Assembly: GCF_056712565.1 (NCBI RefSeq)
Contig: NZ_CM160072.1
Reading direction: 5' to 3' (one strand)
Length of the DNA stretch: 64,000 nucleotides
A program made the translations under genes and the position numbers. Below the pieces are notes generated by a model. It saw only the letters and a list, made by a program, of their open reading frames with translations. It was not told the DNA's origin and searched no databases. Of the stretch, positions 17,105-17,619 are shown in pieces; the first letter of the stretch is position 1; each line of letters starts with the position of its first letter.

Positions 17105-17619
17105 TTAGCGATTCTCGATGGACTGACGGAGCGTACCCGCTGTGGCATGAACGCTACCGCCTAAGTAGCGCACATCGTCGATGACCCAACACTGGCCTTC
17201 CTGAATCATTAACACTTCATCCTGCCAGCCCTGGTCACCCTGCTTGAGATCCACGCGCAATGGAATGTTACGGGCATCACGATTAGGGATAGTAGATGCA
17301 CTGGCAACGTGGGCGCTGTCTGGCAAGGTGGTTCGACTGGAGAACGGATCGCTGCTTAACAATTCACGATGACTATTATCGCGGCTGGCATCGCTAAGTA
17401 GGGTTGCCAGTTTGTCACTCAAATAGGGGCGTAGAGCGGTAATGTCATTGCCGCGATGTTGAATGCGGTAGTCATAGAACTGTTGAGCCACGCTATCAGG
17501 CCCCCCTGGACACAGGAACCGGTGCGGGGGCCGTTATCTTTATAAGCTGGCGTGACGGTGGTACAGGCACTGAGTAGCAGTGCGCAAGGGATAAGCATGG
17601 TCAATTTGCTATAGCGCAT
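17105..17619 (-). pseudogene. ybjP: Lipoprotein YbjP, frameshifted within a C6/G6 homopolymer (17501-17506)
   Basis: The N-terminal part (MRYSKLTMLIPCALLLSACTT..., lipobox) and the C-terminal part (VAQQFYDYRIQHR...) are in different frames that meet at the CCCCCC run. Confidence 0.7.

Follow-up and report, generated by a model that had tools for sequence, protein, structure and literature searches.

The ybjP gene carried by the window, that is the whole stretch of 64,000 nucleotides analysed here, is very probably a real and vertically inherited loss-of-function allele. Directly observed are its sequence, the break of its reading frame, the occurrence of the same break across many independent assemblies and the perfect association of this break with the marker of a clade. 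The loss would have started from the B2/E-type ybjP allele, whose codons CAG GGG GGG CCT for Gln-Gly-Gly-Pro form a run of seven G. Replication slippage, the probable mechanism, would have dropped one of these G in the ancestor of one ST95-like ExPEC sub-lineage, leaving six C on the plus strand (C6; run lengths are given below for this strand). Translation from the intact start would then yield the signal peptide, Cys19 and the native sequence up to Gly40 before going out of frame and stopping at codon 67, and the globular DUF3828 domain would not be made as an exported lipoprotein. This loss would be tolerated because YbjP is presumably dispensable under most conditions.

Structure of the interrupted ybjP gene

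The neighbours of ybjP in the window are artP (16159-16986, minus strand) on one side and, on the other, ybjQ and amiD (17745-18895, plus strand), which form a divergent pair. The order artP - ybjP - ybjQ - amiD is the standard one in E. coli, and the locus thus occupies the position of a YbjP gene. It includes the following features:

17105-17619, minus strand: ybjP pseudogene of 515 nt (the intact allele has 516 nt, i.e. 171 codons plus stop)
17501-17506, no strand assigned: C6 homopolymer (G6 on the coding strand), site of a 1-bp deletion compared with the C7 of intact alleles
17563-17619, minus strand: intact signal peptide and lipobox, MRYSKLTMLIPCALLLSA/C with Cys19, from the translation (the mature chain 9qgy_D begins at residue 19)
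17419-17619, minus strand: leftover N-terminal ORF, 66 codons plus stop, with native residues 1-40 including Cys36 and then 26 out-of-frame residues
17105-17518, minus strand: displaced C-terminal frame with the whole globular DUF3828 domain (best Pfam stretch about 17162-17488)
GTG at 17491, minus strand: start of a 128-aa ORF without signal peptide within the displaced frame, whose exact product is ABJ00244.1 of APEC O1
17500-17506, minus strand: G_GGG_GGC on the coding strand, in the zero frame and of the -1 slippery heptamer form, read from the sequence

The ATG at 17619 opens a translation that begins with MRYSKLTMLIPCALLLSAC, identical to residues 1-19 of K-12 YbjP, and that includes the lipobox LSAC with Cys19. 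This frame reads MRYSKLTMLIPCALLLSACTTVTPAYKDNGPRTGSCVQGG, followed by 26 unrelated residues and a stop at codon 67. The frame one base off on the same strand reads ...GGPDSVAQQFYDY... and ...GGPDSVAQQFYDYRIQHRGNDITAL..., before ending with SIENR and a stop that reaches 17105. A Pfam search assigns this downstream frame to DUF3828 (PF12883, E=6e-31) and finds the domain in the displaced frame only, the N-terminal fragment giving no family match. No single frame unites the lipobox and the DUF3828 domain, as the zero frame closes after 66 codons. To judge from its frames, the locus is a pseudogene of the YbjP family (DUF3828 lipoproteins that are partners of TolC) and not a working member.

In RefSeq, PGAP annotates “ybjP, lipoprotein, frameshifted” at equivalent coordinates in ATCC 11775, S88, APEC O1, RM14723, 2015C-4136CT1, EcN_Sk and MS20645. 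The pseudogenes of APEC O1 (APECO1_RS04210), S88 (ECS88_RS05505) and ATCC 11775 (EAS44_RS16565) do not differ from that of the window within the gene, with the same C6 run and the same coordinates.

Intact alleles of UTI89, 13P477T and O157:H7 EDL933 align as C7 genes of 516 nt with the codons CAG GGG GGG CCT. The run of the window was changed in silico to each length and then translated: C4 gives 170 aa in frame, C5 40 aa, C6 66 aa, C7 171 aa identical to YbjP from UTI89 (WP_001298306.1) and C8 41 aa. The ybjP DNA of the window is one base apart from the UTI89 allele and otherwise identical to it. Compared with intact E. coli YbjP (P75818 in K-12; WP_001298306.1 in UTI89, IHE3034 and Nissle 1917), it is thus the same gene at the same place, but it is short of one G of the G7 run and its lipobox and DUF3828 domain are split across frames. 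The restored protein matches the YbjP chains of PDB entries 9v52, 9qgy and 9tg4 (E=2e-108); the protein collection returned no entry for the exact sequence of intact UTI89 YbjP. K-12-like alleles (ATCC 8739, G3/10) use GAA GGA GGC CCG for the same Gly-Gly-Pro stretch and have no homopolymer there. As these codons interrupt the run, the hotspot would be specific to one class of alleles.

The initial annotation had proposed that the N-terminus with the lipobox and the conserved C-terminus are read in two frames joined at CCCCCC, 17501-17506. This is borne out, coordinates included, by the translations, by the DUF3828 match and by the plus strand around the run, which reads g-CCCCCC-t. The same annotation had expected a five-C run to restore a single frame of 171 codons; here the arithmetic was wrong, as C7 restores this frame and C5 truncates the product, and MS7163, a genome with C5, is also annotated as frameshifted. 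The comparison with the run length of other E. coli ybjP alleles, which it had suggested, gives C7 for the intact B2-type and O157-type alleles and C6 for the window.

Distribution and origin of the shortened run

The run length was surveyed in 5,426 complete E. coli genomes with queries of 69-72 nt differing in run length alone; at this query length, a match at 99% identity or more has to be exact. The counts are as follows:

B2-type flanks (the type of the window): C5 in 1 genome, C6 in 35, C7 in 414, C8 in 1
O157-type flanks (C6 and C7 searched): C6 in 2 genomes, C7 in 307

The 35 genomes with C6 on B2-type flanks include the Sanger-era sequences of APEC O1 and S88 as well as many recent isolates from humans, poultry, pigs and dogs. 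Among these 35, the type strain is represented by two separate records (ATCC 11775, CP033092.2; JCM 20135), and four of four UTI89 records have C7. Sequence comparison over 751 nt reveals that the 31 C6 copies of the clade described below are identical to each other, and that those of APEC O1, S88 and ATCC 11775 are 100% identical to the window. In the collection of public assemblies, no fewer than 1000 contigs carry the 128-aa product ABJ00244.1, which a gene caller reports solely when the frameshift is present; the index lists it in 3,332 blocks, mostly with contigs of draft size. The 66-aa N-terminal product is also called as a protein in public assemblies.

The window was compared with the other loci from position 1353 on, as positions 1-1352 are prophage DNA that these loci lack. 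A direct comparison of 1353-37745 with APEC O1 gives two SNPs (18373 and 30920) and no indel. Between 5001 and 30000 the only difference is the SNP at 18373, the “100.0%” identity of this segment being a rounded value. This match over 36 kb without indels shows that the assembly of the window is not riddled with homopolymer errors.

The prophage DNA at the start of the window is P2-like: by eye from the translations, the ORF at 61-978 resembles the tail protein gpD and the ORF at 1036-1287 an Ogr-like zinc-finger activator. It abuts ybjL (1523-3208), ending about 170 bp from its stop, and is a feature of the strain of the window compared with APEC O1. In APEC O1, S88, UTI89, ATCC 11775 and the other genomes compared, rcdA is found at this position and the alignment to the window begins at 1353.

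Position 1805 of the window, in ybjL and 15.7 kb from the run, is T in the window, APEC O1, ATCC 11775, S88 and MS7163, and C in UTI89, IHE3034 and all five non-ST95 genomes compared, which indicates that T is the derived state. An exact 71-nt query found the derived T in 32 of the 5,426 genomes: 31 with C6 plus MS7163 with C5, and none with C7. Such a perfect linkage of the marker to the shortened run argues for one ancestral slip followed by stable inheritance. Resting on one linked SNP, this points to the shortened run being a character of a clade, with one origin and no reversion among the sampled members. The sub-lineage with C6 includes APEC O1, S88, ATCC 11775 and the strain of the window, while the nearly identical UTI89 and IHE3034 keep the gene. 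This single derived marker was used instead of an ST95 tree from the local 35 kb, which would be uninformative since the ST95-like group differs there by only about five SNPs.

Runs of six C are also found beyond this clade. RM14723 and 2015C-4136CT1, sister strains four SNPs apart, have C6, and at 16934 and 17644, the SNPs closest to the run on its two sides, they show the non-ST95 state. MS20645 carries C6 together with five other SNPs inside ybjP, EcN_Sk carries it together with about ten, and GCA_964043285.1 carries it on a Nissle-like haplotype. Furthermore, two O157 genomes have C6 and APEC 102026 has C8. Several of these cases are single assemblies of uncertain quality and possibly errors (e.g., CP165483.1). 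To judge from these haplotypes, at least two independent C6 events seem secure, one in the ST95 sub-clade and one in the RM14723/2015C-4136CT1 pair, and several more are possible. The tract seems, on these comparisons, to be a mild mutational hotspot.

A gain of C6 by the RM14723/2015C-4136CT1 pair through recombination from ST95 was also considered and is unlikely, as 16934 and 17644 keep the non-ST95 state on either side of the run. Over about 13 kb around ybjP (window 11000-24000), these two strains are nearly identical to the ST95-like haplotype, with about eight SNPs. The blocks on the sides are far more divergent, for example with 64 SNPs in the segment from 9 to 11 kb, a mosaic typical of recombination.

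A different route to the loss of ybjP is seen in strain LR-64-1. There, the N-terminus is lost to the insertion of the IS4-like element ISVsa5 (locus L010, 706-1599), unlike the frameshift of the window; as in the window, the exported protein is lost, but independently.

Switching, recoding and assembly error as alternatives

The G7 tract could be a low-rate switch under selection, with repeated and possibly adaptive losses of YbjP in extraintestinal pathogens and traces of wild-type protein made through -1 slippage. This is quite unlikely; if true, such a switch could, for example, help these bacteria to get rid of an exposed or immunogenic protein of the envelope or to change traits that depend on TolC.

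Phase variation in the strict sense, with the G tract acting as a contingency locus that turns ybjP on and off reversibly and at high frequency, is very unlikely. Like the poly-G/C contingency loci of Neisseria, Haemophilus and Campylobacter, ybjP has a coding homopolymer that sets the frame of a surface-associated protein, and its length variants occur in several lineages. The tract varies from 5 to 8 across E. coli, and four or more different B2-type alleles of ybjP have C6 (ST95-like, RM14723/2015C-4136CT1, MS20645 and EcN_Sk), in addition to the Nissle-like GCA_964043285.1 and the two O157 genomes, with C8 in one genome. However, all 32 genomes of the marker clade are out of frame, without any revertant, and repeat assemblies agree with each other (type strain C6 twice, UTI89 C7 four times). 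No on/off difference was seen among close relatives or within one strain in these 32 genomes and in the records of the type strain and UTI89. With B2-type flanks, four C6 beyond the clade, one C5 and one C8, several of them possibly assembly errors, stand against 414 C7; with O157-type flanks, two C6 stand against 307 C7. Furthermore, known contingency loci typically have poly-G tracts longer than six to seven G, and ybjP differs from these loci in that its off-state is fixed in a clade without revertants and that, outside this clade, more than 99% of the genomes have the gene “on”. These run lengths speak against the ybjP tract being a contingency locus with rapid switching. The initial annotation had mentioned phase-variable-like slippage as one possibility: the part of it that stands is that the length of the tract seems to have changed more than once across E. 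coli, whereas the fixation of the frameshift throughout the clade speaks against switching.

The frameshift could also be bypassed during expression, a -1 ribosomal slip on G_GGG_GGC or the addition of a G by RNA polymerase yielding wild-type YbjP, so that the gene would be functional. The coding strand CA G_GGG_GGC CTG does contain a heptamer that fits X_XXY_YYZ in the zero frame; a ribosome moving back by one base after GGG-GGC would read CCT GAT AGC and so make exactly the wild-type ...VQGGPDSVAQQ... In the same way, the -1 frameshift site of E. coli dnaX (A_AAA_AAG with an upstream Shine-Dalgarno element and a downstream hairpin) is an X_XXY_YYZ heptamer whose -1 frame encodes the rest of the product. 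In contrast to dnaX, the ybjP heptamer lacks stimulators, is not conserved and was probably born of a recent deletion. The fold of the minus strand over 17410-17530 is not a stable downstream structure (z=+0.87, with 159 of 200 shuffles folding at least equally well), and nothing resembling a Shine-Dalgarno element can be seen upstream of the heptamer. The two-frame layout is not conserved either, as more than 700 genomes with matching flanks (414 + 307) have an in-frame C7, and the clade is too young to reveal selection on the downstream frame, given that its 31 copies are identical over 751 nt. Besides, G-rich heptamers and G runs of 6 nt are poor slippage sites in E. coli. Functional recoding is therefore highly improbable, and the ybjP run, as its sequence context argues, is not a programmed frameshift site. 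Ribosomal or transcriptional -1 slippage on G6 may nevertheless produce wild-type YbjP at a low level.

An assembly or sequencing error, the true run being C7 and ybjP intact, is extremely improbable: G/C homopolymers are classic error sites and some singletons are suspicious, such as MS7163 (C5), which also has potH shortened from G6 to G5 in the same 40 kb without any SNP compared with S88, or CP165483.1 (C6), which carries several further indels and a split artP, but the same C6 is shared by 35 complete genomes, produced in different years by many laboratories and technologies, and by thousands of drafts, its linkage to an unrelated SNP marker is perfect, and the 36 kb shared by the window and APEC O1 contain no indel. 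The initial annotation had left the choice between a homopolymer sequencing error and a genuine pseudogene. The former is now excluded for the C6 allele by these assemblies, Sanger-era genomes included, and the latter is supported by the 35 complete genomes, by the linkage to the clade and by the “frameshifted” annotation of RefSeq.

MS7163 carries two 1-bp deletions in G/C homopolymers over 35 kb, one in potH (G6 to G5, at about window position 10236) and one in ybjP (C6 to C5, at about 17501), with no SNP compared with S88 over this distance. Its assembly may therefore contain homopolymer errors and its C5 may be an artefact.

Consequences for YbjP and other variation around the locus

Two studies from 2025-2026, based on cryo-EM of the K-12 protein, describe YbjP as a lipoprotein that binds TolC in a 3:3 ratio at its equatorial domain, in TolC alone, in MacAB-TolC and in AcrABZ-TolC. 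YbjP contacts TolC through its linker and its globular domain, and the N-terminal linker and a loop run along TolC. Its Cys19 is lipidated and anchors the protein in the outer membrane, a disulfide joins Cys36 to Cys144, and the globular contacts with TolC involve K70, S107-N118, R122, E135, R151 and G155-A159 (10.1101/2025.03.19.644130; 10.1101/2025.10.29.685381). Deletion of ybjP in K-12 leaves TolC levels, growth, motility and the MICs of many compounds unchanged and alters the proteome slightly.

In the window, the break falls after Gly40. The export signal, the lipobox, the linker and Cys36 are kept, whereas everything from residue 41 onward, i.e. the whole DUF3828 domain, all published globular contacts with TolC and Cys144, is lost from the exported product. 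The 128-aa ORF starting at GTG 17491 could at most give a cytoplasmic domain without signal peptide. [quoted passage not shown] Such a loss appears tolerable, which fits the mild phenotype of the K-12 knockout.

This pseudogene is already annotated in RefSeq for several well-known strains and is an ordinary natural null allele. Full-text literature searches found no paper that ties ybjP pseudogenisation to ST95, and the search for reports of a ybjP pseudogene yielded only an unrelated mention of a Salmonella prophage. Natural null alleles are likewise unmentioned in the two papers on the structure of YbjP, including that of Horne et al. Relating the allele to the role of YbjP as a partner of TolC is a small useful note and no discovery; its value comes from its timing, as the work of 2025-2026 established YbjP as a stoichiometric partner of TolC in the pumps AcrAB-TolC and MacAB-TolC while its knockout in K-12 has no clear phenotype. 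Here, a natural null is fixed in a successful ExPEC/APEC sub-lineage that includes the type strain ATCC 11775, the neonatal-meningitis strain S88 and APEC O1. YbjP thus appears dispensable for the extraintestinal life of these three strains, and studies of TolC or efflux in them probably deal with bacteria devoid of YbjP. Natural pairs of strains (those with C6 versus UTI89 or IHE3034) are at hand for testing the role of YbjP.

Some other differences were seen around the locus. An internal stop due to a C to T change (at about window position 8403) interrupts potG in S88 (L012, 11381-12514) and in MS7163 (L017, 11382-12515). ATCC 11775 shares this T and is annotated with a shorter potG, while potG is intact, with C at this position, in the window and in APEC O1. 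At window position 13909, in the artJ-artM intergenic region, a run of A has six residues in ATCC 11775, S88, MS7163 and EcN_Sk and seven in the window, APEC O1, UTI89 and others.

EcN_Sk (L013) and Nissle 1917 (L014) are separated by about 865 evenly spread substitutions over 35 kb, or about 2.4%. Either EcN_Sk carries a large recombined segment here or it is not a simple derivative of Nissle. In IHE3034, a tyrosine integrase and a helix-turn-helix regulator (L020, 38975-40752) directly follow yljB, where other genomes have clpS-clpA; these genes point to the insertion of an island or a prophage, and the alignment of IHE3034 to the window stops at 35806.
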